Source of the DNA: a virus
Length of the DNA: 64,000 nucleotides
Strand: one strand, 5' to 3'
IMG/VR virus record: IMGVR_UViG_3300023243_000351
The notes under the pieces are model-generated. The model was not told where the DNA came from and made no database searches. It saw only the letters and a list, made by a program, of their open reading frames with translations. Shown piece by piece: positions 13,691 through 62,656 of this stretch. Made by a program: the position numbers and the translations under genes. Numbering within the stretch: position 1 is the stretch's first letter; each line of letters starts with the position of its first letter.

Positions 13691-14122
13691 TTATTCCGGG
13701 AAGACCATCTGTTCTTGCACAATGTATGGATCTTTAATTTCACCAGACTCAATTCTGCGTCTTTCTTCTGACCGTAAGTAAGTTACAATAGCAACTATAT
13801 CCATACCGTCAATGGTTGTACCAAATGCACCCATTGTGCCGCCTAAACTCTGATTGGTAATGCCCACACTAATGGTTGTGAATATACCCATGTTGGTATT
13901 TGAACTGTATGTAAACTTGCCACATGTTAAGCAAGGACCTTTGCCACCTTTGCCTTGGCCACCATGACAGAAGGAACAACGTCTGTCGTACCACTCTCGA
14001 CCATTTTGTACTGTGTCTGAGTTCGTAATATCTAGTGCCAGATCATTTTCGTTCATCTGATGAAGATCAGCTGAGAATAACAATGTGGGAATAAACAATA
14101 GAAAAAATAAAATCTTTGACAT
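13691..14122 (-). CDS. Periplasmic monoheme class I cytochrome c
   Basis: Signal peptide; CSFCH heme motif; GGKGPxL; distal Met in GGTMGAFG; C-terminal helix IVAIVTYLRS. Confidence 0.85.
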   Translation of the reverse strand: MSKILFFLLFIPTLLFSADLHQMNENDLALDITNSDTVQNGREWYDRRCSFCHGGQGKGGKGPCLTCGKFTYSSNTNMGIFTTISVGITNQSLGGTMGAFGTTIDGMDIVAIVTYLRSEERRRIESGEIKDPYIVQEQMVFPE

Positions 14123-14165
14123 ACTAAACCTCCAATAGTATTTATTTGGCTACTATGTTAGCAGT

Positions 14166-14792
14166 TTAGTTTTGGCTGTTTCTATCACCGTAAAATATGT
14201 GTGTGCCTATTTTAGCCAATTTAGGATAACGCCAGACAGGGCTAACATAATCTGCATGATAGAATACTGCTTGTTTTAAGCCAGGTAATCTTTTGCCTTC
14301 AATTAATACCTGTCTGGCTACTTCATAGCAACGGTCAAAGATAGTTTGATTAACTGACGAAATGCGATCTGATTTACCATCACAGTACCAACTGAATTGG
14401 CAACGATGTTTTACAGGATAATATACACTCTTGTCTTTCCAGGATGCTTTGGTTGGGCCTTGATATACCACATCACATATATCATCAGGGAAACTGTTGT
14501 GTGCCACTCGGTTAAGAGTGACCTGTGCCACAGCAATCATACCTTCAACTGGCTCACTACGAGCTTCCCAGTATATGTTCCTAGCAAGGCAATCCAATTC
14601 TCGCCTAACCTGTCTCATGTCAACAGGCGATTGCTTTACTGCTGTGTTAATAATTTCGATAGTTTCTGCGCCCACTGCTTGGTTTGCTGGCGCTTTAACA
14701 TTACTAGTGACTGCAATAATTGCATATACTACCAGCCACGTTCCTAGAAAAAATGTTACTAATCTTGACCATTTGGTTAGATCTTGCTTCAT
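14166..14792 (-). CDS. Cell-wall hydrolase (SleB/Hydrolase_2 family)
   Basis: CLARNIYWEARSE, AVAQVTLNRV, FPDDICDVVYQ, CQFSWYCDG, FYHADYVSPVW, IGTHIFY; N-terminal TM. Confidence 0.92.
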   Translation of the reverse strand: MKQDLTKWSRLVTFFLGTWLVVYAIIAVTSNVKAPANQAVGAETIEIINTAVKQSPVDMRQVRRELDCLARNIYWEARSEPVEGMIAVAQVTLNRVAHNSFPDDICDVVYQGPTKASWKDKSVYYPVKHRCQFSWYCDGKSDRISSVNQTIFDRCYEVARQVLIEGKRLPGLKQAVFYHADYVSPVWRYPKLAKIGTHIFYGDRNSQN

Positions 14793-14908
14793 GTTTTTCT
14801 CCTATCTTACCGCATCCAGTATTTAAAAGCGAGTCGGATGTAAGTTAACAACTGCTATTATACTATAATAGTGGGGTATAATCAAATTTTTTGGTATAAA
14901 TACATATT

Positions 14909-15214
14909 ATGCCAGCAATATGTAGAGTAGGTGACACACTAACAACCGGACATGGATGTGATACCACAACAACCATTGCTTCGCCAAACAACGACGGCAC
15001 TGTTCATGCTAACGGTATTGACATTATAGTAGTTGGTGCTCCGACAGTATCTCACCTAATACCCAGTGGAGATTCATGCGTACCTCACGTGGCATTTTTA
15101 AATGCTGGTTCAGGTAGTGTTTTCCTCAATGGTATTGGAGTAGGTAGAATAGGTGATAGTGCCGACGCCGGTGCTATGATAAGCGGATCACCTACTGTGT
15201 TTGCCGGCGGCTAG
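14909..15214 (+). CDS. PAAR-repeat spike-tip protein (T4 gp5.4-like)
   Basis: MPAICRVGD..TGHGC...H...PH...GSGSVFLNG..GRIGD...GSPTVFAG; TATAAATA at 14895-14902. Confidence 0.9.
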   Translation: MPAICRVGDTLTTGHGCDTTTTIASPNNDGTVHANGIDIIVVGAPTVSHLIPSGDSCVPHVAFLNAGSGSVFLNGIGVGRIGDSADAGAMISGSPTVFAGG

Positions 15215-15511
15215 TTAAGGCCTAACAATTTCCAACCCAGTTGTGGTCTTGATATAGTGTGTTTTGATTTGATCAATGCATTCAGCAATCATAACAACAT
15301 GATTTTTTTGAATAGACGCACTGGTATGTGGATCTGCTGTGAACAGTGCTTGAATTAATCCAACACCTTGCTGACCAGGTACTACATTGCATGCCTTCTC
15401 GACGTTGTAGTGATCTGCTGTTTCGCTGGTAATCTTTGCAACTATCTCTTCCCCAGTGATTAGTTTTAGTGCGCAGATCTGTCCTTCCCATTTACTATTT
15501 TCTAATAACAT
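15215..15511 (-). CDS. Conserved phage protein, Sm/LSm-like fold
   Basis: ALKLITGEEIVAKI...YIKTTTGL pattern; follows glutaredoxin. Confidence 0.55.
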   Translation of the reverse strand: MLLENSKWEGQICALKLITGEEIVAKITSETADHYNVEKACNVVPGQQGVGLIQALFTADPHTSASIQKNHVVMIAECIDQIKTHYIKTTTGLEIVRP

Positions 15512-15512
15512 G

Positions 15513-15758
15513 TTAACTCTCCTTGAGCTTATCGAAAAATTCAGTTGTTTGATCTGCTAACCCATTGTATCCTCCAGGTAGCAGTTGTTCATTGATATAA
15601 ATCTGAGGTACTGTACGCAAGCCAGCGTCAACGATGCGTTTCCTTGCATCTGCATCTTGTTCAATGTTTACTTCGGTGTACTTTATACCTTTGATCTCTA
15701 GTAGTGCTTTGGCCTTTGTGCAAAAAGGACAATTGTTTTTTGAATATATTGTAATCAT
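15513..15758 (-). CDS. Glutaredoxin
   Basis: IYSKNNCPFCTKAK, RTVPQIYI, GGY; promoter TTGACA, 16 bp, TATAAT ending 7 nt before the ATG. Confidence 0.95.
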   Translation of the reverse strand: MITIYSKNNCPFCTKAKALLEIKGIKYTEVNIEQDADARKRIVDAGLRTVPQIYINEQLLPGGYNGLADQTTEFFDKLKES

Positions 15759-15868
15759 ACGCTTAATTATACTTGTTAAAAATTATTTGTCAAACCCCGA
15801 TTAGTCCTAATTAGTTGATCTGGTACCAAGCTGTAGCCACCTACGTATATTCCTCTGTCTATTTTCAT

Positions 15869-16999
15869 TTATGTTCTAGTAGCTGTTAAGTCTTCTAACT
15901 TCCAACCTTTAGTTTTGCCTTTTTTTGGAATACCCCATTTCTTTTCAATTTGCATTTTAAGAGTACTCCAACTTAAATTATGTGTTTTACAGAAATCAGT
16001 AGATTCACCGCCGTATAATATGTGCTCATCCCCTGTTGGAGATGTTAGTCTGTAAGTGTGGCTATTTTTATTTTTTTTACCGATTCGCAACTTTGCTTTT
16101 TTGCTAATTAATGCCTTGGTACTTTCTTTTTGTGTTTTACCGTACATTGGGTTTCCGGCACCAGAATTTAATTCACTAAATCGTTTTCGTGTTTCGATGC
16201 TGTGTTGCTTAGGGCCATATCCACCTCTCTCTTTCTGAAGGCGTGATCTTAATTCTCGTTGTTGCTTTGCTTTGTTAACCCCGTATATTTCTTCGTATGT
16301 TCTACCTTTCTGATTAGGTGGGCGGGCATCAGGACATATATTGGTTAATATGCCATTCTTGTCATATCCTTTTCTACCATACTTTTTAATTGCAGTGGCC
16401 TCGATATCATACGCTAATTCCTCGTCTAATATGTTTTCAGCAATGTATTCAATTACTGGCTCTGCTCCGGACTTTCTTATACTCGCGATTTTATTTTCTT
16501 TGTAAACATTTCTAGTGTCGGACACAGTCCGTAAATGTGTTGTTGCTCTGTCACCTGTACCTTTGCCGATATAAAATGGTTGGTTATTTCTCGGATCCAC
16601 TATTTGATATACATAATACATTCGGTCACTCTCCTGTTTTAAATATTTAGCAAGAGACTGAGAGTAACAGTTAGGTATCGAGTAATCGTTGGATTGGTCT
16701 GAACTTAACGCAAAAATAATGTGTTCTCTGTTATCTTTATATGGTGTTACGTCTACTAACGTGTTATCTTGCCATACACTGTGTCTTATGGCCTGCACAA
16801 CATTGAACCCCTTTATAAAATAATAGCCAATTACTTTCTTGCCGCCGTATATACTAGAGTGTATTCTAACATTGTTATGGCAGTTATTATACTCGTATGC
16901 AGACTGTGCGTTAACTTTAACTGCTCCTACCCAATTACAATCGAGAGCTTTTGCCATAGACATAATCTCATTGTCAATTGTAACTGGGTTACTCCACAT
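15869..16999 (-). mobile_element. Free-standing GIY-YIG homing endonuclease with NUMOD3-type repeats, fused to an N-terminal Cys-His-Asp domain
   Basis: YYVYQIVDPRNNQPFYIGKGTGDRATTH (GIY-YIG), HSIETRKRFS/GAGNPMYGKT (NUMOD3-like); residues 1-126 carry C40 (NNCHNNV), H73 (IRHSVW), D83 (LVDVTP); internal TAAATA and AGGAG before Met127 (nt 16621). Confidence 0.85.
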
Positions 17000-18127
17000 T
17001 TAAAGAGTAAAGCCACTGAACGTGTTTGAGTCCACGTCTTGTTTGGTTCCACCAATTATATATGATGATATTTGAGTTTGCTGTGGTGCCACCTGCACTT
17101 CTGCCCCAGCAATCCACTTTTGTGTCCACGGCAACGGATTGCTACCTGTTTTAATACCACAACTAAGCCCAACTGCTGTCATACGCTTGCAGGTCAACCA
17201 ATCAATGTACTGACACAATAATACTGTGTTTAGTCCAATCATACTACCGTCTTTGAACAAGTATTGTGCCCAATCTCTTTCCTGCTTGGCGGCATTAAGG
17301 AACATTGTTTCACATTCCTCTTTAGTTTCTTCGCGGATCTTTGCAAAGTCCTTGTCGTCTGACGGTAATATTTTAAGTAGTGTTTGTGTACTGCCCAAGT
17401 GAACATTTTCATCACGTGCAATCAGTTTAATAATCTTAGCATTGCCTTCCATCTTTTTAAGTTCAGCAAATGCCCAACTGCATGCAAACGAAACATAAAA
17501 ACGTATACCTTCTAACGCATTAACATTGTTTAAGCATAACCATAGTTTACGTTTTAACTCGTAACGATCAACTATAACTTCCTTGCCGTTAACCTTGTGC
17601 TTGCCTACGCCAAGTAGATTATAATACTGCACAGCTTTAATCAAGTCATCATAGTAGTGACTAATGTCTTTGGCACAATCTGCAATCTCTTTGATATCGT
17701 GTAGTCCATCAAACACTGTACTCGGATCGCTGTACACATTACGAATAATATGTGTATAACTACGACTGTGTATTGTTTCATTAAATGCCCAAGTTTCTAT
17801 CCAAGTTTCCAACTCTGGGATGGTAGCGATAGGCAAAAATGCTAGATTAGGTGAGCGTCCTTGTACACTGTCCAGTAGTATCTGTCTTTTAAGATTACTG
17901 GTGAAGATATGCTTTTCATACTCAGTAAGTTCCTTAAAGTCTTTTGCATCACGCAATACATCAACTTCTTCAGGTCTCCAAAAGAAACCTAACTGCTTGT
18001 CTGTCAACTTGTCAAATTGACGATACTTTAGTGTGTCGAATCTCTGTATTGCCGGAGTACCTGCTTCGTCTAGGAACGCAAGTGACTTGGTATGATCTTT
18101 ATTATTTTTAATATTGAATACGCTCAT
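17000..18127 (-). CDS. nrdB: Class Ia ribonucleotide reductase beta subunit, with Q at E350/E352
   Basis: [39 protein letters not shown] all intact; C-tail [13 protein letters not shown] versus E. coli VQVAPQEVEVSSY. Confidence 0.97.
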
Positions 18128-18137
18128 GTTTTCTCTC

Positions 18138-20441
18138 TTAAATTACACAACTTTCGCAATCATCTTGATCTTCGTAGTCTTCAAGCTCTTGCTGTTTTGC
18201 TTCACCTAGTGCTTCTACTATGTATTCACCTTGTCCATCATATGTATTAAAGTAGTACAACTGCTTTAATCCATACTTGTAACACATCAACAAGTGTTGT
18301 AACATTGATGACATTGGAATCTTTTCGTCCTCGTAGTGCTGAGGATTGTAAGATGTGTTTACACTAATACCTTGATCAATGTACTTTTGAAGTACGCCAC
18401 ACAGTTTAATATATCCCTCCGGGGTAGTCTGATCCCACAGTAGTTCATAACGGTTCTTTAACCGCCTATATTCAGGCACAACCTGCTTTAATTGGCCGTG
18501 CTTTGACCCCTTAACGCTTACAAAACTTCGCGGTGGCTCTATACCATTAGTAGCATTACTGATCTGCGCACTTGTTTCTGCAGGCATCAATGCCATTAGT
18601 GTTGCATTACGCTGACCAGTCCGTTTTATTTGTTCTCGCAGATCATTCCATGGCATACGCTCTTGATGCTTGACCAACTCGTCAACATCCTGCTTATACG
18701 TATCAATGGGTAAACGACCTTGCGCAGATTTTAAATCGTTCCATCTGGTGCATGCACCTTGTTCTTCCGCTAAGTCTGCAGAAGCCTTGATCAAATAGTA
18801 AGACCAGGCTTCTGCGTACTCATCTACCAGTGGCAACGCCGCTGGGTCACTGTAACTTACATCATTCTTAGCCAAGAAATAAGCAAAGTTAATGATGCCT
18901 ATACCTAACGGTCTAAACTCTTCTGTTGCTTTACGTGCGGCTTTAATTGGATAACCTTGGTAACTCAACAGTGCATCTAGGCCGCGTACTGCCAACTTGC
19001 ACATTTTCTCAAAGTCATGTGGGCTTTTTACATTGCCCCAATTGATCGCTGATAAAGTACACAGGGCGATCCTACCATCCTCGTCATTGACATCTTTCAA
19101 TGGTACAGTTGGTAAATCTATTTCTGCGCAAAGGTTACTCATCTTCACAGGCGCGATCTTTTCATCGAACGGTGAGTGCGTATTAGCATGATCCACGTTC
19201 TGTAAATAAATTCTTCCAGTGTCTTTGCGTTCCTGCATAAACCTACTAAACAGATCTGCTGCCTTGTAGGTCTTCTTCCTCAGTTTAGTATTGCGTTCTG
19301 CTCTCTCGTATAGCTCTTTGAATTTGTCTTGATCATTGAAGAACGCTTCATACATCTCTGGTACATCATGCGGACTAAACACAGTGATGTCTCCATTTGT
19401 GATTAGTCTTTCATACATTAACTTATTAAATTGTACGCCATAGTCCATTTGACGCACACGATTATCCTCTGTGCCTTTGTTGTTTTTAAGGACCAAGAGG
19501 TCTTCGATTTCATAGTGCCATATTGGATAGTAAAGTGTTGCGGCACCATTTCTTACACCTCCCTGACTACAACTACGTGTAGCAGATTGGAATAACTTGT
19601 AAAAAGGAGTTACGCCTGTGTGAAAAGCATCTCCTTTGCGTATAGGTGCACCTAATGCACGTATACGTCCTGCACCAATGCCAATGCCTGCTTTTTGTGA
19701 CACGTACTTAACAATACTTGCGGCTGTTGCATTGATACTGTCTAAACTGTCGTCTGTTTCAATCAGCACACAACTGCTGAACTGTTTTTGTGGTGTGCGC
19801 ACACCTGCCATAACCGGTGTAGGCAAACTTACATCAAAATTACTGATTGCGTCATAGTAATCACGTACCCATTTGAGTCTAATATCTTTAGGGTAGTCTT
19901 GGAATAGTGTCGCGGCTATTAACATGTAAGCCATTTGTGGAGTCTCAAACATCTCACCAGTAACACGATTTTGTACAAGATACTTGCCACGCCATTGTTC
20001 CATAGCAACATAGGTGAATGTTTCATCACGATCATGTTTAATATAACTATCTAATTTCTCCCACTCATCTGTATCGTATGCTTCTAATAGGCCGCGATCG
20101 TAAAAACCACTTTCGACATTGTGTTCTACCAGTTTTAACAATGGCCAAGGTGCATAGTCCCCATATACTTGTTTACGTAGATGATAGTTAATTAGTCTGC
20201 CAGCAACATACTGATAGTTTGGAGCTTCTTCTGAAATCAAATCAGCGGCACTTTTAATAAGTGTTTCTTGTATGTCTACTGTTTTGATCCCAGTATAAAA
20301 TTGGATGTGGCTTTTTAGTTCTACTTCACTGGCACTTACACCTGTAATACCTTCAGTTGCCCACATAACAACCTTGTGCATTTTTTCTATGTCTAGTTCT
20401 TCTTTGATTCCATCTCTCTTGATTACTTGAATCTTTGTCAT
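18138..20441 (-). CDS. nrdA: Class Ia ribonucleotide reductase alpha subunit
   Basis: N-terminal ATP cone (VIKRDG), QFSSCVL, SNLCAEI, ALCTL, LYYF, C-terminal CESC. Confidence 0.97.
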
Positions 20442-20457
20442 TCGTGCCCCATCATTA

Positions 20458-20904
20458 TTATTCTAACGTTAGTTCTGTTGCGTCATAGCAACGTTTCAAT
20501 GTTAATGTTTCTGCAATATCAGTTTTATTTAATACCTGATTGTCAATCAAATTAAGTACATATTTTCCTTGATTCAAATAGGCTACACAATATTGATACC
20601 CTGTGTTTGAATCAACATACACATGTACTTCAAGTTCTAAATTCGTTCCGTGCTTGCTATGATATAAAGTATACACTATTCCCAGGACTTTAGCAAGATC
20701 ACAATAGTAGTTATCTATAATTAAATCCCAGGCATTTGGCCAACTTTCGGGATTGTCTAAATCTAAATAAAAGGCAGTCCAAGGACAGGGCTGCCAGAAA
20801 TCTATTGTTTCTTGTAATGCTTCTTCAAAAGGAAGTTGGTTGATCTTGAATCTAAAATTTTTCCAGCACTTCAATCTAGAAGCACTAGTGCGTAACTTGA
20901 ACAT
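20458..20904 (-). CDS. Conserved hypothetical phage protein
   Basis: WPNAWDLIIDNYYCDLAKVLGIVYTL; between the tail-like gene and nrdA. Confidence 0.6.
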   Translation of the reverse strand: MFKLRTSASRLKCWKNFRFKINQLPFEEALQETIDFWQPCPWTAFYLDLDNPESWPNAWDLIIDNYYCDLAKVLGIVYTLYHSKHGTNLELEVHVYVDSNTGYQYCVAYLNQGKYVLNLIDNQVLNKTDIAETLTLKRCYDATELTLE

Positions 20905-20907
20905 CTT

Positions 20908-22278
20908 TTAACTAATAAATTGATTGATTGCGTATTTAAATGTGCCTGTGCCTGATTCTAATGTGACGGTTAAACTAGTGGCATTGGCGAATAAGTTTGC
21001 TTTAACACCAACTCCATTTTCCACATGTTGATCATGAAACTCTGAACTTGTTCCATCTGTACTGAATTGGTATGTACCAAAACGTTTTGCTGAACTGTTA
21101 CTGATTTGATACTTTATTTCGCCTGCTGTGTTAGCAACGAATGTTGCAATAACCGGCGAAGCAGTACTAATTGACGCACTACGTGCTACTCCGTATCTTA
21201 GATTACCTAGTTGCATACCAGTAGTCAGTGCGCTTCCGTTAGTATGTACTTCACCAAAGGAAACAAAACTAGTTGCGCCTGCAGTAGTTTTTCTTGTGCC
21301 AACAGTTCCGAAGTAGTTGTTAATACTACTAACACTATCAACACTGTTCAATACTATTGCAGTATTGCTGATACCATCAAACTCAGAATTAAGTATGTTA
21401 ACAAACTTTGTAGTAGATCCCATGTTTACAATACCGTTACCACCACCTAATATTTTGACTTTGTCTAACGTAATATTTTGTGTACTGGTGCTGGTACTTA
21501 ATATTTCAATTACGTTAGGGTAATAAGTTCCTGCTTTGATATTAGACTGAAAAGCTGTGTTTGTTATTCTAACATTACTAGCACTATCGATGTTTAGCAA
21601 AGGATACTGAACGTCTGCAGATACGTTTTGGAACGTTAATCCGCTTATATCGATTTGATCAGGTAGTACTGCACTGCCTGTCCCAATTGTTGCTCCACTT
21701 TGGAATGCGCTGTCTGACAAATTTGCTACAGTTAAATTACCATAAGTTAACTTAATTGTACTGCTAGACGGTCCGTCACCTTGTAAACTTGTGTTAGGCG
21801 GAATGCTAATAACATTACTGGTTAAGTATGTTCCTGCAGGAATATAAATTGTTCTTCGTGTGCGAGTATCGAAATTATTTTCTGATTCTTTATATATCTG
21901 TTCGATTGCACGACGGATCGATGCCGTATCATCCGCAACACCGTCACCTACTGCGCCAAAGTCTCTAATATTAACAAAGTCATCAAATTTCTGTTGGAAA
22001 CTGCGTACTGTTGGATTAAGGATACTACTGCCAGTTTCGACAGTATACTCTGTAACATTTCCCTTAAAAGTATACGAACCAATCAATGCCGCTAAGTCAG
22101 TGTATTGTGTTAACACTTCTGTAATACCAGTAGCTGGTGCACCTTCTGCTACGGTACCGTTACCGATATATAATTTACGTGTGTCTACACTCCAGCCGAG
22201 CTCTGCGCCAGCAAGTTGTGGTAGGTCTTGATTAAGACCTCGTCTATGTTGAATTCTACTTATTTGGGTAACAGCCAT
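20908..22278 (-). CDS. Tail-fibre/tailspike-like virion protein with pectate-lyase-3 beta-helix
   Basis: ISRIQHRRG...LAGAELGWSVDTRKLYIGNG N-terminal module; VNIRDFGAVGDGVADDT...IYIPAGTY...LQGDG. Confidence 0.75.
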   Translation of the reverse strand: MAVTQISRIQHRRGLNQDLPQLAGAELGWSVDTRKLYIGNGTVAEGAPATGITEVLTQYTDLAALIGSYTFKGNVTEYTVETGSSILNPTVRSFQQKFDDFVNIRDFGAVGDGVADDTASIRRAIEQIYKESENNFDTRTRRTIYIPAGTYLTSNVISIPPNTSLQGDGPSSSTIKLTYGNLTVANLSDSAFQSGATIGTGSAVLPDQIDISGLTFQNVSADVQYPLLNIDSASNVRITNTAFQSNIKAGTYYPNVIEILSTSTSTQNITLDKVKILGGGNGIVNMGSTTKFVNILNSEFDGISNTAIVLNSVDSVSSINNYFGTVGTRKTTAGATSFVSFGEVHTNGSALTTGMQLGNLRYGVARSASISTASPVIATFVANTAGEIKYQISNSSAKRFGTYQFSTDGTSSEFHDQHVENGVGVKANLFANATSLTVTLESGTGTFKYAINQFIS

Positions 22279-23002: not shown

Positions 23003-23612
23003 GTGTTTCGATCCATGCAGATAGTTCATCTGCTATTCGTTGATGACCCTGGTGATCTGGATGATCTCCTTGAGGAATGTTTGCTCCACTTATTTCATGA
23101 AGTGACTTGTTATAAAATAGTTCAGTAGGTAGTAGTTTTATTCCTGTCATTGCAGGGATGCTTTGCAACGGTACGGTCCAATTGTAAACAAACAGACATG
23201 TTACGCCTAGAGTTTTACACAATCCATATACCATTAGTAGATCCTTAATGGCGTTAGCGTGAGCTAAATCTTGACTGTAAATATATTTGTAGTATTTCGA
23301 CCCAATCGCATGATTTGAGTTGGCCGGGTGTAGTTCCATTGGGTATCCGTTTTCCCAATACCAACTCCTGTCAGGATTAGTAATACAAAATAGTACTATG
23401 TCTCCTTTTCTGATCGATTTACGCTCAACTGCTTTAACAAACTGCCAAGTTGCTTGTTCAAGAGATGTGGCTGCTTGACTTAGATTGTCTAATAGATAAT
23501 TATTTTCCTGTGCAACAAGATACGGAAATCCTTGTTTCACTACGTCATGTAGGTCCACACCTGCAGGCCAACTATCACCAAATACATAAAGGGTTTTGTC
23601 TTTAATGCTCAT
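22992..23612 (-). CDS. SGNH/GDSL-like hydrolase or acyltransferase
   Basis: VFGDSW nucleophile motif and C-terminal DHPDHQGH. Confidence 0.65.
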   Translation of the reverse strand: MSIKDKTLYVFGDSWPAGVDLHDVVKQGFPYLVAQENNYLLDNLSQAATSLEQATWQFVKAVERKSIRKGDIVLFCITNPDRSWYWENGYPMELHPANSNHAIGSKYYKYIYSQDLAHANAIKDLLMVYGLCKTLGVTCLFVYNWTVPLQSIPAMTGIKLLPTELFYNKSLHEISGANIPQGDHPDHQGHQRIADELSAWIETHDN

Positions 23613-25314
23613 GGTGCATCCTTCTATAGATTTGTTTTGCATAATCATTGCGCTTACTGCTGGACGATGCTGAAATATGTTGTAATGTCCATTTAAGAAA
23701 CTGTCCGTTAGTGTTCAACTTCGAAGTCATGTCTGACACTGCCATAGAACATGCAGTGATCGGCTTCGCTGTGGGTGTACGATCCAGTTCAGTTGTAAAA
23801 TAGAACTTGTTGTGTATTAACCAGTTTTCAGCCAAATTGTCTCTTAGAATCTGATAAAGATCACTTACTAAGAATAAGTCTACTATCTTATCTGCGTCAA
23901 AGCTAATATAGTCCATTAACTTTCCTACTTTGTACACTTTGTAAAAATTTATAGTTGCATGTATTAAACTTAGCATTGTCATCTCTATAAAGTCGTGTTG
24001 AGTGAATGACACACAACTTTGCGTAAAAGGACTACTGAATTCACTTTGTCCGTGGAAGTCCCATCTTAGGGAGTTACTGTACTCAAACTTCCATTTATTA
24101 ATATACTCGTTACTTCTGGCTGCCGGACTTGCAGATAGCAGTTCGCTTACATATACAAATGGTATTACATGTTCGTTGGCCATGTCAGACAAGGTTTGTC
24201 TCCAGGAATCAACTGTCTGTCCGGGTAGTCCTTGTATTAACTGTACTGCTGATGGTAGGTGCGGGTATAACTCTCTAAGTTCTCTTATATGACTAGTGTG
24301 TACATCCCACCCGACGTCGGGTCTATCTATGTTCTCAAGTATTGTTGGATTATTATCTTGTACACTTATTACGAAATGTCTACACAGATTTGCTTTTGCC
24401 ATAGTATGGAATATTTTTATGTTGTTATCTTTTCGTAATTTGCTTACTGTGTAATCTAATCTAAAACTTGCATTTTCGTTTAGATTCTTATCTGCCATAT
24501 ACTCTATTAGATCAACATCCTCTTGGTACTGACCCAGGTTTGCGTCTGCCATGAATAAACTTTTTACTCCAACTGCTTGGAATAAATCAATTTCATCTTT
24601 GTAACTGTCTTTCCTGCGTGTTGTTTTGTTTCCGTAACCGCTATTCCAATCACAAAAAGTACATGCGTAAGGACATCCCCTAGTCAGTTCGTACGAAATA
24701 ATTGGTTGCAGTTTTTTCTCGTACATGTCGTCAACCATGGCTTTGAACATTTCTGCATTATGTAAGTATGGACTTATTTTAGATTGCGGAACATATTCGT
24801 ATTCGGCTACAATTGCACCCCTATTAGAATCAGGCCACGCCATGTTTGTAAGTTCTTCTTTTACTAAAGGTTTGTTAAGCACCATCCTCTCAATGAACTC
24901 AGCAAATGCTTTCTCGCCTGGCCCATAAAATGCATAATCAACAAATTTATGTTCTAAGAAGTAATTTGGATTTATATTAACATCTACACTAGGGCCCCCT
25001 GTAACAAACAGTATGCTAGAATCTACTCGAGGTCGGATTCTGTCTAACTGTGCTAGTATTGCTATGTAGTTCCAGATATAATGAGTAGTGCAGAACATAT
25101 CTGGTTTTTCTTGTTGGATCAGACTTACTAGCTCATCGTCAGATAACTTAACTTGTTGTGGGATCGCCCATTCCAACTTCTTGGCTATTTGTGGTTTTTT
25201 AATTTCTATATATGTCTTAAGGTAAAGACTAGTTGATTTCACAAAAACGCTGTCATTAGGATGTACAACGTCATGGAATAGTTTATCTTCAGAATGGTAG
25301 AATAATATTTTCAT
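23602..25314 (-). CDS. Cobalamin-binding-type radical SAM protein
   Basis: TRGCPYACTFCDW (CxxxCxxC); N-terminal YIWN...GGPSV...GPGEKAF; DANLG; LIQGLPGQT. Confidence 0.85.
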   Translation of the reverse strand: MKILFYHSEDKLFHDVVHPNDSVFVKSTSLYLKTYIEIKKPQIAKKLEWAIPQQVKLSDDELVSLIQQEKPDMFCTTHYIWNYIAILAQLDRIRPRVDSSILFVTGGPSVDVNINPNYFLEHKFVDYAFYGPGEKAFAEFIERMVLNKPLVKEELTNMAWPDSNRGAIVAEYEYVPQSKISPYLHNAEMFKAMVDDMYEKKLQPIISYELTRGCPYACTFCDWNSGYGNKTTRRKDSYKDEIDLFQAVGVKSLFMADANLGQYQEDVDLIEYMADKNLNENASFRLDYTVSKLRKDNNIKIFHTMAKANLCRHFVISVQDNNPTILENIDRPDVGWDVHTSHIRELRELYPHLPSAVQLIQGLPGQTVDSWRQTLSDMANEHVIPFVYVSELLSASPAARSNEYINKWKFEYSNSLRWDFHGQSEFSSPFTQSCVSFTQHDFIEMTMLSLIHATINFYKVYKVGKLMDYISFDADKIVDLFLVSDLYQILRDNLAENWLIHNKFYFTTELDRTPTAKPITACSMAVSDMTSKLNTNGQFLKWTLQHISASSSSKRNDYAKQIYRRMHHEH

Positions 25315-59593: not shown

Positions 59594-60423
59594 TGCGGAA
59601 GATATGTACGTGCGGAAGGATAATCGCCTGTGATAACACTGGTGCTGTTGCGTATGGATTCTGGGAAGTAATCATCTAGGGCAACAGGTGCAAACTTGTA
59701 GCGTTCATCTGTTTGTATTATGCCATGCCCTTTGCGTATGCTTTCTTCAACGTTCAACTGTTCTAGTATCCACGGATCGTTGGTTTCGTCGTGTGCAAAA
59801 CTACCAATTTTTTGTTTAGCAAACTCTTCGTTGCCAAAATACGTAAAGTGCCACCCAGCATGTTCAATCATTTCCACAGTGTCATCTTTGTGGTTATACG
59901 GAAAGCCTTGTAGTTGATGCCTTGCTCGTCTAAAGTCTTCTGGATTGTCCAGCAGTTTCTTCCTACATGCACTGCTCCACACAACATAGTTGTCTTGGTT
60001 AATTAGCATGTAATTAAACTTAAAGTTAAACAAGGGCATTCTGAATGGCCATATACTTGCACTACTTGCTCTAAGTTTCTCAATGGTTTCTGTTCTGGGT
60101 ATTTCATCTATATCGCTTACTATGATTATATCATTGTCGTCTGCATCCCGCACACCGTTTAATATAGCATTGCGCTGATGTCTTTCCCTGCCCCATGTAT
60201 CTGTGTCTTTGGGCATGTCTGTAACAGGATAGTAGATAATTTTATCTGCCCATTGTGCAAAACGTTCTCTATTGTTGTAGTACAGCAGGTCTTTGGGATT
60301 GTCTTGGAATGTTCTATTGGCTTCTACTAATACAAAATAATCCACATGATCATATAGTTCACGCAGTCTGAGCTCAAGAAGCCCAAACTCATTGAAAAAG
60401 GGGAAACTGTCGTATATTTTCAT
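59590..60423 (-). CDS. Glycosyltransferase family 17
   Basis: IYDSFPFFNE..LLELRL, FVLVEA, QRNAI, SDIDEIP, GWHF. Confidence 0.88.
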   Translation of the reverse strand: MKIYDSFPFFNEFGLLELRLRELYDHVDYFVLVEANRTFQDNPKDLLYYNNRERFAQWADKIIYYPVTDMPKDTDTWGRERHQRNAILNGVRDADDNDIIIVSDIDEIPRTETIEKLRASSASIWPFRMPLFNFKFNYMLINQDNYVVWSSACRKKLLDNPEDFRRARHQLQGFPYNHKDDTVEMIEHAGWHFTYFGNEEFAKQKIGSFAHDETNDPWILEQLNVEESIRKGHGIIQTDERYKFAPVALDDYFPESIRNSTSVITGDYPSARTYLPQ

Positions 60424-60475
60424 AGCAATACTTAGTATAATAAATATTCTTACAAATGATTTTCAAGGACAATAT

Positions 60476-61120
60476 ATGCCACATGCCGTAGCGACGCTAT
60501 ATGATGACAACTATCGCGACCTCGCTGAACTAACAAATGAACCCAAAATAGAATACTGTGAACGCTACGGTTACAAGTTCTTTGAACTAACCGAAATGAA
60601 GTACAGCAAGATCACAGGCTTCAATAAAATACATTATACACTAGAACTTTTTAAACTGCATCCTGATATTGATTGGTTGTTGTTTTCAGAGTGCGATGCT
60701 ATGATTACTAATCTCACTATTCCCATCGATGAGAAGATAGACAACGACTACCATGTAATAGTGCCAGTGGACAGACTAAACATAAACACAGGAAACTTCT
60801 TGGTGCGCAACACAGAGCAAGGCAGAGCTTGGCTACAAATGATAATAGACAAAGAGCCAGACTACATATTAATAGAGTGGGCTGAACAACAAGTTGTTAT
60901 TGACACTATTGAAGAATACCAAGACATTGTTAAGATTGTTCCGCAAAGGTACATGAACAGTTACGAGCCACAAATTTATGATTACTGTGATGCCAGCAAA
61001 GATATTATGGGCAACTCAGGCGCATGGGCACAAGGAGATTGGATAGTACACTGGCCCGGCACTTACAAAAACGTTAGGCTCAAAAGAGCAGAGCGAGTTG
61101 GTAGACAAATAATCAGATGA
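60476..61120 (+). CDS. Glycosyltransferase (GT34-like)
   Basis: KIEYCERYGY, WLLFSECDAMITN, INTGNFLVRN, EQQ, GDWIVHWPG; start reassigned behind AAGGA. Confidence 0.75.
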   Translation: MPHAVATLYDDNYRDLAELTNEPKIEYCERYGYKFFELTEMKYSKITGFNKIHYTLELFKLHPDIDWLLFSECDAMITNLTIPIDEKIDNDYHVIVPVDRLNINTGNFLVRNTEQGRAWLQMIIDKEPDYILIEWAEQQVVIDTIEEYQDIVKIVPQRYMNSYEPQIYDYCDASKDIMGNSGAWAQGDWIVHWPGTYKNVRLKRAERVGRQIIR

Positions 61121-61965
61121 AGGTTTACATCACAGGCGCAACTGGGTTTGTAGGACTCAATCTAGCCGATTACTTTCGTACAAGAGGACATGCGGTTATA
61201 CTACACGTGCGTACTGACGACGTCACAGCACATCGGCAACTCACAGCACAGTTGCAAAGTTTCCAGCCAGATGTTATAATAAACTGTGCGGCAGAGATAT
61301 ACGATGCTAATAAAATGTTTGAACCAAACATACTGCTCACATACAAGTTACTCGAATATGTAAGAGACGCTAAATGTCGTATGATACAAATTGGCAGTAG
61401 CAGTGAATATGGCCCAACAGAATACGCAACAGCAGAAGACACACTGCTGAAGCCAGTGGACTTTTATCAAGGCACAAAGGCCGCGGCTACGCTCATGTGC
61501 CAAGGTTGGGCAAGGGCGCACGATTTAAAAATTTACATAGCAAGACCTTACAGTGTGTATGGTCCAGGAGAAAGACCACATAGACTATTTCCACACTTGT
61601 GGAGAGCATTCAAGTACAATGAACCTATGACACTGTACGAAGGCTATCATGACTTTATCTACATACATGATTTTTGTCGTGGTATAGAAATGCTAACACA
61701 GGACAACATTGCACCAGGTGAAATTTATAACTTTGGTAGCGGAGTGCAGGTAAGCAACAAAGAAGTACTGCAAATATTCGAAAAAATAACAAAGAAAACA
61801 GCACCAGTAACAGAAGTATTTGAAATTAGAAAAGCATTCGAAAGTAAACTGTGGGTGTGCGACACAACAAAATCAAAACAGTTAGGTTTTGAATGTAACT
61901 ATTCATTAGAAGAAGGTATAATATATTTTTTAACCAAGGCACATTATGAGAGCAAAAATACTTAG
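61117..61965 (+). CDS. NAD-dependent epimerase/dehydratase
   Basis: TGATGFVG, GSSSEYG, YQGTK, RPYSVYGPGE, DFIYI. Confidence 0.9.
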   Translation: MKVYITGATGFVGLNLADYFRTRGHAVILHVRTDDVTAHRQLTAQLQSFQPDVIINCAAEIYDANKMFEPNILLTYKLLEYVRDAKCRMIQIGSSSEYGPTEYATAEDTLLKPVDFYQGTKAAATLMCQGWARAHDLKIYIARPYSVYGPGERPHRLFPHLWRAFKYNEPMTLYEGYHDFIYIHDFCRGIEMLTQDNIAPGEIYNFGSGVQVSNKEVLQIFEKITKKTAPVTEVFEIRKAFESKLWVCDTTKSKQLGFECNYSLEEGIIYFLTKAHYESKNT

Positions 61966-62656
61966 AACAAGCAAAGGTAACAAAATTAACGTGGTTGCAG
62001 AATCTGCAGAAGCAAAATTACATTTTGACGAGCCAGAAAACCATGTAGACACCATACTAAAACAGATTAACGAAGAACGCATGTACGATCCTATTTTCCT
62101 AGACAAAAAAGATATGACTGTGTTAGACTTGGGTGCTAACATAGGACTGTTTAGTTTATATGCCGCGGACAGTTGCGACCGTGTTGTTGCTGTGGAAGCA
62201 GTGCCTAGCACCTATAAGATTGCCCAAGAGCTTACAGCAAAGCATCACAACATAGAAATGCGACCATATGCAATCAATAACTATAATGGAGATGTTAGTT
62301 TTTATCTTAACGAAAATTCAACTACCAACAGTTTAGTAGGCCACAAAGGGGATGAGATTACTGTACCCGGTATTACCATTGCAGGTTTGCTAGAAACATT
62401 AGAAATTGACCATGTTGACTTTGTTAAATGCGACATTGAAGGATCAGAAGTGATTGCACTAACAGAAGAAACGGTAGGAGCAGTAGCAGACAAGATTGAC
62501 TTTTGGTTCATTGAAATACATCAGACCAATAATGAAAGTCATCAATGGCCAGGTAACCTGGAAACGAACAGACAACAACTAAAGACTGTGTTTGAAAACT
62601 GTGGCTACACAGTGGAACCAGTTATACATGATCAATTATACGCATTCAAAGCATGA
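61946..62656 (+). CDS. FkbM-family methyltransferase
   Basis: VLDLGANIGLFS, VAVEA, FVKCDIEGSE, IEIH. Confidence 0.9.
   Translation: MRAKILRTSKGNKINVVAESAEAKLHFDEPENHVDTILKQINEERMYDPIFLDKKDMTVLDLGANIGLFSLYAADSCDRVVAVEAVPSTYKIAQELTAKHHNIEMRPYAINNYNGDVSFYLNENSTTNSLVGHKGDEITVPGITIAGLLETLEIDHVDFVKCDIEGSEVIALTEETVGAVADKIDFWFIEIHQTNNESHQWPGNLETNRQQLKTVFENCGYTVEPVIHDQLYAFKA

Follow-up and report, generated by a model that had tools for sequence, protein, structure and literature searches.

The question raised by this locus is how a phage can afford glutamine at a position of its class Ia RNR where glutamate is essential. The window, the whole stretch of 64,000 nucleotides that was analysed, is phage DNA, with PHROG matches to a DnaB-like helicase, an exonuclease and an endolysin-like protein, and its sequence occurs in salt-lake metagenomes; an RNA run (X24) contains related phages only. 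On its minus strand, nrdA, nrdB, a 376-residue ORF (15869-16999) and a glutaredoxin gene lie in a row. The nrdB stop codon TAA abuts the ATG of the ORF, as a preliminary description of this DNA had it, and in many relatives free of the mobile element described below the glutaredoxin gene lies directly 3' of nrdB. The features on which the argument turns are the following.

18138-20441, minus strand: nrdA, class Ia RNR alpha with ATP cone, from family matches
17000-18127, minus strand: nrdB, class Ia RNR beta, 375 residues, tail recoded at 350
17078-17080, minus strand: codon 350, CAA (Gln) replacing the essential Glu; the insertion junction in relatives
17072-17074, minus strand: codon 352, CAA (Gln), a common polymorphism
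16622-16999, minus strand: thiol-enzyme domain without a family, residues 1-126 of the ORF, candidate protein-glutamine deamidase
16880-16882, 16781-16783 and 16751-16753, minus strand: triad codons C40, H73 and D83
16631-16635, minus strand: AGGAG, 9 nt before Met127, Shine-Dalgarno-like and of presumed function
16325-16621, minus strand: LEM-3-like GIY-YIG nuclease domain
16103-16210, minus strand: NUMOD3 DNA-binding motif, residues 264-299
15766-15793, minus strand: putative sigma-70-type promoter between the element and the glutaredoxin gene, a perfect 12/12 match to consensus and read from that match only
15513-15758, minus strand: glutaredoxin

No second nrdB was found within the 64-kb window, a weak match near 61.6-61.9 kb being located in an epimerase gene. 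Several other genes were observed in passing: a phage-encoded c-type cytochrome with a hydrophobic N-terminus (PF13442; 13691-14122, minus strand), a B12-binding radical SAM protein (23602-25314, minus strand), a PAAR-motif protein on the opposite strand (14909-15214, plus strand) and a cluster comprising glycosyltransferase 34, an NAD-dependent epimerase and an FkbM methyltransferase (60392-62656, plus strand). Permuted tmRNAs of alphaproteobacterial type were seen near nrdB in two related loci (L023:2738-3040 and L049:1721-2036), which hints at alphaproteobacterial phage hosts.

Residues 26-375 of the encoded NrdB align to E. coli R2, with QQTQ falling on QEVE, so that the two glutamines first read at 350 and 352 are confirmed both by position and by alignment. 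The diiron ligands, the radical Tyr and the equivalents of W48, R236, D237 and Y356 expected of a class Ia beta subunit are all present. In window numbering, derived from motif offsets, the iron-ligand and radical-path residues are W50 (the W48 of E. coli numbering, which the preliminary description had used), D86, E117, H120, Y124, E206, R238, D239, E240 and H243, and the Y356 codon is at 17060-17062 (minus strand). The one class Ia beta feature that the encoded protein lacks is Glu at 350, where the gene has CAA instead.

The E350Q variant of the E. coli enzyme was reportedly found inactive by Ravichandran in 2017. Both E350 and Y356 are essential for turnover, and free beta is disordered over about its last 30 residues (PMC8463856). 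E350 bonds to K154 and S647 of alpha, and its substitution disrupts radical transfer (PMC11482829). The window NrdA keeps the corresponding residues, K153 and S646, and Q350 phages show no variation at these positions (33/33 and 65/65). A compensating change was sought as well, and no NrdA or NrdB column besides 350 separates the Q350 from the E350 classes. Judged from these alignments, the alpha docking site would still expect a carboxylate.

What does accompany Q350 is the domain encoded immediately downstream. Viral contigs were gathered by DNA pattern for each tail type, and the domain was then searched for with a profile. It lies within about 1 kb of the Q350 allele in all 85 informative viral contigs, as compared with 1/240 for E350 alleles. 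The former comprise 78/78 informative Q350/Q352 contigs (80 were collected, two of which stop 101 and 134 nt past the motif and are uninformative), 3/3 Q350/E352 contigs and 4/4 Q350 loci that differ at residue 351; the latter split into 0/120 for E350/E352 and 1/120 for E350/Q352. Once duplicates were removed, Q350 was found with the domain 45 times and without it 0 times, and E350 with it once and without it 141 times. Independent pairs on the tree are concordant in 14-15 of 15 cases (p about 1e-4). The Q350 pattern had 0 matches in cellular genomes, where the E350 pattern had at least 120.

Since E350/Q352 alleles mostly occur without the domain (119/120), the link is with Q350, and Q352 counts as an ordinary polymorphism. 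The preliminary description had taken E352 to be as essential as E350 and had considered that Q352 might be repaired too; E352 is not needed, and Q352 is rejected as a required substrate. Q352 is nonetheless enriched in element alleles (80 vs 3), which are also accompanied by synonymous biases at codons 346-351. Judging by its codons, all this looks like a short co-inherited patch.

The converse association is looser. When retrieval started from the domain, distant homologues adjoining nrdB were found beside Q350 in 6/8 cases and beside E350 in 2/8, with very different NrdB tails. An intact domain adjoins an E350 nrdB at L302, L342 and L484, and probably at L299, where the contig is cut; the first three may be revertants, recombinants or the ancestral state. 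The rule is thus one-way: Q350 implies the domain, and the domain does not imply Q350. The expected strict pairing of the Q350 tail with a Cys-His-Asp domain therefore stands, and its counterpart, that E350 alleles lack the domain, is mostly right with a few exceptions. At L356, Q350 is followed by a frameshifted domain, one T short in a run of six and otherwise near-identical to L351, a frameshift that is probably an assembly error.

The distribution of Q350 is that of a mobile trait. In the NrdB tree, Q350 alleles are scattered, with 26 state changes, at least 12 of them forced by well-supported branches. Filled and empty alleles are found in pairs as close as 98.9% (L023/L246) and 97.2% (L007/L250) identity. 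Between the window and L004, the domains are 90% identical and the NrdB proteins 72%, which suggests recent transfer. Several filled/empty pairs regain DNA similarity past the element at about the codon 350 position. A profile of the tail further detected an orphan second nrdB tail 3' of the element; 18 Q350 contigs have one, as against 0/240 E350 contigs. Among the distinct orphan tails, 7/10 start with GAA or GAG at codon 350 and 0/10 with CAA, and three further E350 tail remnants are seen at L338, L340 and L343; such starts indicate that E350 is ancestral, that insertion took place between codons 349 and 350 and that the expressed tail acquired Q350. Past codon 352, the expressed and orphan tails share 87-96% identity in 7/10 loci, and in six of those seven (not L014) they are clearly closer to each other than to the tails of other elements, which may reflect either duplication at insertion or later homogenisation. 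At the level of sequence, these comparisons establish that a mobile element sits at the 3' end of phage nrdB, joined at codon 349/350 and always accompanied by the G-to-C change at codon 350.

A mechanism can be proposed in which the element combines a short recoded patch (codons 349-352) with a Cys-His-Asp enzyme and, in most cases, a homing endonuclease. The nuclease would cut E350 alleles (GAA/GAG) at the conserved codon 350 and spare CAA; that it cleaves E350 alleles, the G-to-C change conferring immunity, appears reasonably probable. The resulting Q350 beta would be unable to dock productively on the unchanged alpha. The thiol enzyme would then attack the side-chain amide of Gln350 in the disordered beta tail, release ammonia and leave Glu350, restoring wild-type NrdB, and we consider this deamidation of Q350 to E350 after translation to be likely. 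Loss of the enzyme gene would inactivate the phage RNR, and the element would be kept for that reason; such a dependence would also explain the survival of the enzyme gene after nuclease loss and the absence of any solitary Q350, even at loci from which direct repeats should let the element be excised. The genomic evidence is strong; the biochemistry is what we infer from it.

The enzyme itself belongs to no family that could be recognised. Neither Pfam nor PHROG gives a significant match to residues 1-126, the sole NCBIfam match of the full 376-residue ORF lies on the nuclease part, and profile searches of PDB sequences and Pfam gave no family for the domain. The C40, H73 and D83 proposed at the outset are present and invariant among copies: the Cys/His/Asp triad is intact in 97/97 domain copies, each of its residues is found in 148-149 of 151 aligned distant homologues, and the invariant columns in 38 diverse copies are C40, Y60, H73, D83 and P86. 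The domain dN/dS is 0.09-0.32. Papain/transglutaminase enzymes place the Cys at the N-terminus of a helix and the His and Asp on strands. In the predicted model (pLDDT 91.7), C40 opens a helix (40-51), H73 lies on a strand (67-77) and D83 ends the next one (81-83), which gives the invariant order, the helix start and the adjacent strands of that superfamily.

A VIA structure search returned as its top eight rows PeiW, TglA, 2hly, PeiP, two arylamine N-acetyltransferases, GdmF and SseI, all of which we take to be of papain/transglutaminase-like fold; LapG and cathepsin B come lower in the list, and the alignments cover about residues 30-107, the triad region. The best row, PeiW, has Z 3.3 and rmsd 3.0 over 74 aligned residues. 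Since the Z values of the top eight (2.5-3.3) are below the meaningful level of the tool, it is the agreement among the listed proteins, together with the conserved triad, that supports the fold assignment, and by this weak match the domain would be a papain/transglutaminase-like Cys-His-Asp enzyme. Foldseek against the PDB gave no match for either model searched, and a VIA search with a bacterial homologue was dominated by the helical hairpin of the latter. Prediction of a complex between the domain and the NrdB tail scored 0.26 and 0.05, for a mark of 0.32, and weighs neither for nor against the proposal.

The domain family counts 1,598 representatives at E up to 0.001. Its close structural relatives are phage proteins without annotation and bacterial SEC-C proteins. 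The bacterial SEC-C-associated proteins (ESM Atlas clusters, TM 0.79-0.87) have the same domain and the same C/H/D pattern; they differ by an extra helical hairpin and the SEC-C motif, and the one checked (P0119) does not adjoin nrdB. Another bacterial SEC-C homologue was seen next to a plasmid Rep3 gene (L481:1039-1647). Named neighbours in the ESM Atlas are YunG-like, with a score under 0.9 and TM 0.44, a predicted similarity that is a lead only. Among annotated phage records, no clear homologue was found apart from one unannotated match, and no cultured model phage was found.

With the chemistry read from a fold, other reactions on the Q350 tail must be weighed, such as acyl transfer to an amine, a cross-link to a NrdA lysine or non-catalytic chaperoning. 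The nearest folds span transglutaminase-like enzymes, isopeptidases and acyltransferases as well as one deamidase, proteases too have this fold, and the co-occurrence data would fit such activities equally well. A cross-link, however, conflicts with the dissociation of alpha and beta needed in each turnover (PMC8463856), and the invariant triad argues against a role in binding only. Moreover, only hydrolysis would restore the exact residue encoded by the 98.9% identical empty alleles, which favours deamidation and makes another chemistry unlikely.

The second half of the ORF was described beforehand as a GIY-YIG/NUMOD3 endonuclease, and this assignment proved correct. Residues 127 to about 225 match the LEM-3-like GIY-YIG family (PF22945) with 27.5 bits, at its cut-off of 27, and the GIY-YIG residues Y128, Y131, Y143, G145, G147, R151, H155, E200 and N220 are present, together with the NUMOD3 DNA-binding module. 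Most fused relatives have an AGGAG ahead of the nuclease start codon; the position of the window copy, 9 nt before Met127, suggests that the nuclease probably has its own internal start and may also be made alone. The residues just before the GIY-YIG start (window 16619-16640, minus strand) have a consensus Q-E-T-E-I that resembles the E350-form NrdB tail, and in L357 this stretch differs from the NrdB tail at 1/9 residues. It may be a mere constraint of the AGGAG or a relic of nuclease insertion into an orphan tail.

The fusion of domain and endonuclease claimed for the window is real there and proved to be optional in relatives. Among 53 distinct Q350 loci, 33 have a fused and intact pair, 3 a fusion with a truncated nuclease, 2 a split pair and 5 the nuclease first; 6 have no GIY-YIG nuclease of this kind, and another 4 do not extend far enough to be classed. 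In the six, other NUMOD3 or GIY-YIG genes are found twice (L012 and L024, with L075 resembling L012), and three loci (L026, L029 and L063) keep the domain with no nuclease at all. L485 has lost the nuclease and kept the domain with its triad. At L344:3001-4617, after a Q350 nrdB, the domain is at the C-terminus of a DUF723-repeat protein, a putative different nuclease partner. The constant partner of Q350 is the domain, not the nuclease; as read from these loci, decay or replacement of the nuclease leaves the enzyme gene and its triad in place.

These loci bear directly on the idea that the two traits merely travel together, Q350 being a tolerated mark of DNA immunity (or its defect being covered by a host NrdB) and the thiol enzyme a passenger with another target. 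Both do sit on one mobile element, so that part of the correlation is plain linkage, and the domain is also found with E350 (3 cases) and away from nrdB. The asymmetry of the rule and the nuclease-less loci nevertheless argue for a dependence beyond linkage: the domain and triad are kept after nuclease loss (L026, L029, L063, L485) as well as beside different nucleases. In 18 contigs the element lies between direct repeats of about 80 nt, whose recombination would leave Q350 behind without it, so that the absence of any solitary Q350 presumably counts against a mere passenger, as do the empty count in cellular genomes and the lack of compensating substitutions. Taken together, a hitch-hiking enzyme seems quite unlikely.

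The same one-way rule weighs on a reversed relationship, in which the enzyme would be a weapon against the E350 beta of the host or of rival phages and Q350 the resistant self. Related folds are often toxins or effectors, and Q350 is nearly always accompanied by the enzyme. Such a weapon, however, predicts that Q350 without the enzyme should be common (0 seen) and that the enzyme with E350 should be lethal (3 seen, triads intact), and it requires the Q350 beta to be active, all of which leaves it very improbable.

A more literal repair would be a swap of the tail, the body of NrdB being joined to the orphan E350 tail by RNA splicing or by transpeptidation by the thiol enzyme. Orphan E350 tails are often in frame with the last ORF of the element or behind their own ATG. 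Read-through of this ORF into the tail is seen in P0008, P0013, P0016, P0038, L002, L006, L008, L020 and L038, which means that the enzyme or the nuclease ends in an alpha-binding tail, and a tail with its own ATG is found in L010, L023 and L049; either arrangement may keep translational coupling to the next gene. An orphan tail is nevertheless absent from 55/71 Q350 contigs with long flanks, and none was found in the window, which is among them. No group I intron was matched by Rfam in window 14000-21000 at E up to 1, the region being fully protein-coding, and no intron was found in nine loci with orphan tails; we regard a tail swap as highly improbable. An artefact, whether an assembly error, which the preliminary description had named as one case that would undo its reading, or an altered genetic code, has a negligible probability, and assembly error is refuted outright: the same letters occur in other assemblies (contigs of runs X14, X19 and X22, the last two without a flag as possible sources, span both CAA codons with 0 differences), the QQTQ tail is present in 80 viral contigs, CAA and CAG are both used at codons 350 and 352 across at least 80 contigs, and the remaining conserved Glu residues of NrdB are encoded normally.

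Deamidation by an element-borne enzyme can be set against known systems. Filled and empty alleles among close relatives, together with horizontal movement, are what is found for free-standing GIY-YIG elements, and by its sequence and distribution the present one qualifies as such. Like the free-standing GIY-YIG and HNH endonucleases of T4-like phages (seg and mobE; intronless and collaborative homing; PMC2988022), its nuclease adjoins a conserved essential gene (mobE targets nrdB), and the elements share spread between phages, patchy distribution and target co-conversion. In contrast, the allele here has a missense change at a catalytically essential codon and a second enzyme; the junction, at codon 350, is about 80 nt from the element, whereas the cleavage sites of free-standing enzymes are hundreds to thousands of bases from the gene (PMC2988022). 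The nrd group I introns and inteins, the NrdA split by mobE in Aeh1 (PMC3045599) and the bypass of T4 gene 60 similarly place a nuclease gene at a critical site, with a repair step that restores the host protein and an imprecise loss that is lethal. Here, instead of splicing, bypass or reassembly, a side chain would be converted by a separate enzyme.

Papain-fold Cys-His-Asp glutamine deamidases do exist, OspI acting on Gln100 of Ubc13 (PMC3636029). OspI, Cif, CHBP and PMT (PMC3636029), as well as SseI, have the same Cys-His-Asp order and helix/strand placement, and a Gln-to-Glu conversion at one site, which is proposed here. Unlike them, the present domain is about 120 residues long, with no detectable sequence similarity and a weak structural score, and it would activate an enzyme of its own genome where theirs is a target in a eukaryotic host. 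An encoded Gln is turned into a functional Glu by a dedicated linked enzyme in the Pup/Dop system. The same is true of CheD/CheB (PMC3513319). These enzymes have different folds, however, and act in fixed, non-mobile cellular systems without a nuclease, where the Gln did not arise secondarily as a defect of an essential enzyme. By analogy, the element would work like an intron or intein (PMC2988022) and like CheD (PMC3513319), while being a member of neither group. The literature search, with most subscription papers outside it, found no paper on this arrangement; the system is real and widespread, and undescribed in the literature searched.

On balance, we lean towards a third route, beside RNA and protein splicing, by which a homing endonuclease could occupy an essential site: the target codon is recoded and so escapes the element's own nuclease, the enzyme carried along edits the translated protein back, and an essential phage enzyme becomes dependent on the element. 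If true, this would be a selfish element of a new class, one that offsets its own harm by editing a protein side chain, and the active sequence of an essential enzyme would differ from that of its gene. It would account for the apparently dead NrdB alleles of aquatic phages and would assign a function for the first time to a large Cys-His-Asp family that lacks annotation. RNR radical transfer would have a natural switch at E350, and a small site-specific deamidase would become available.
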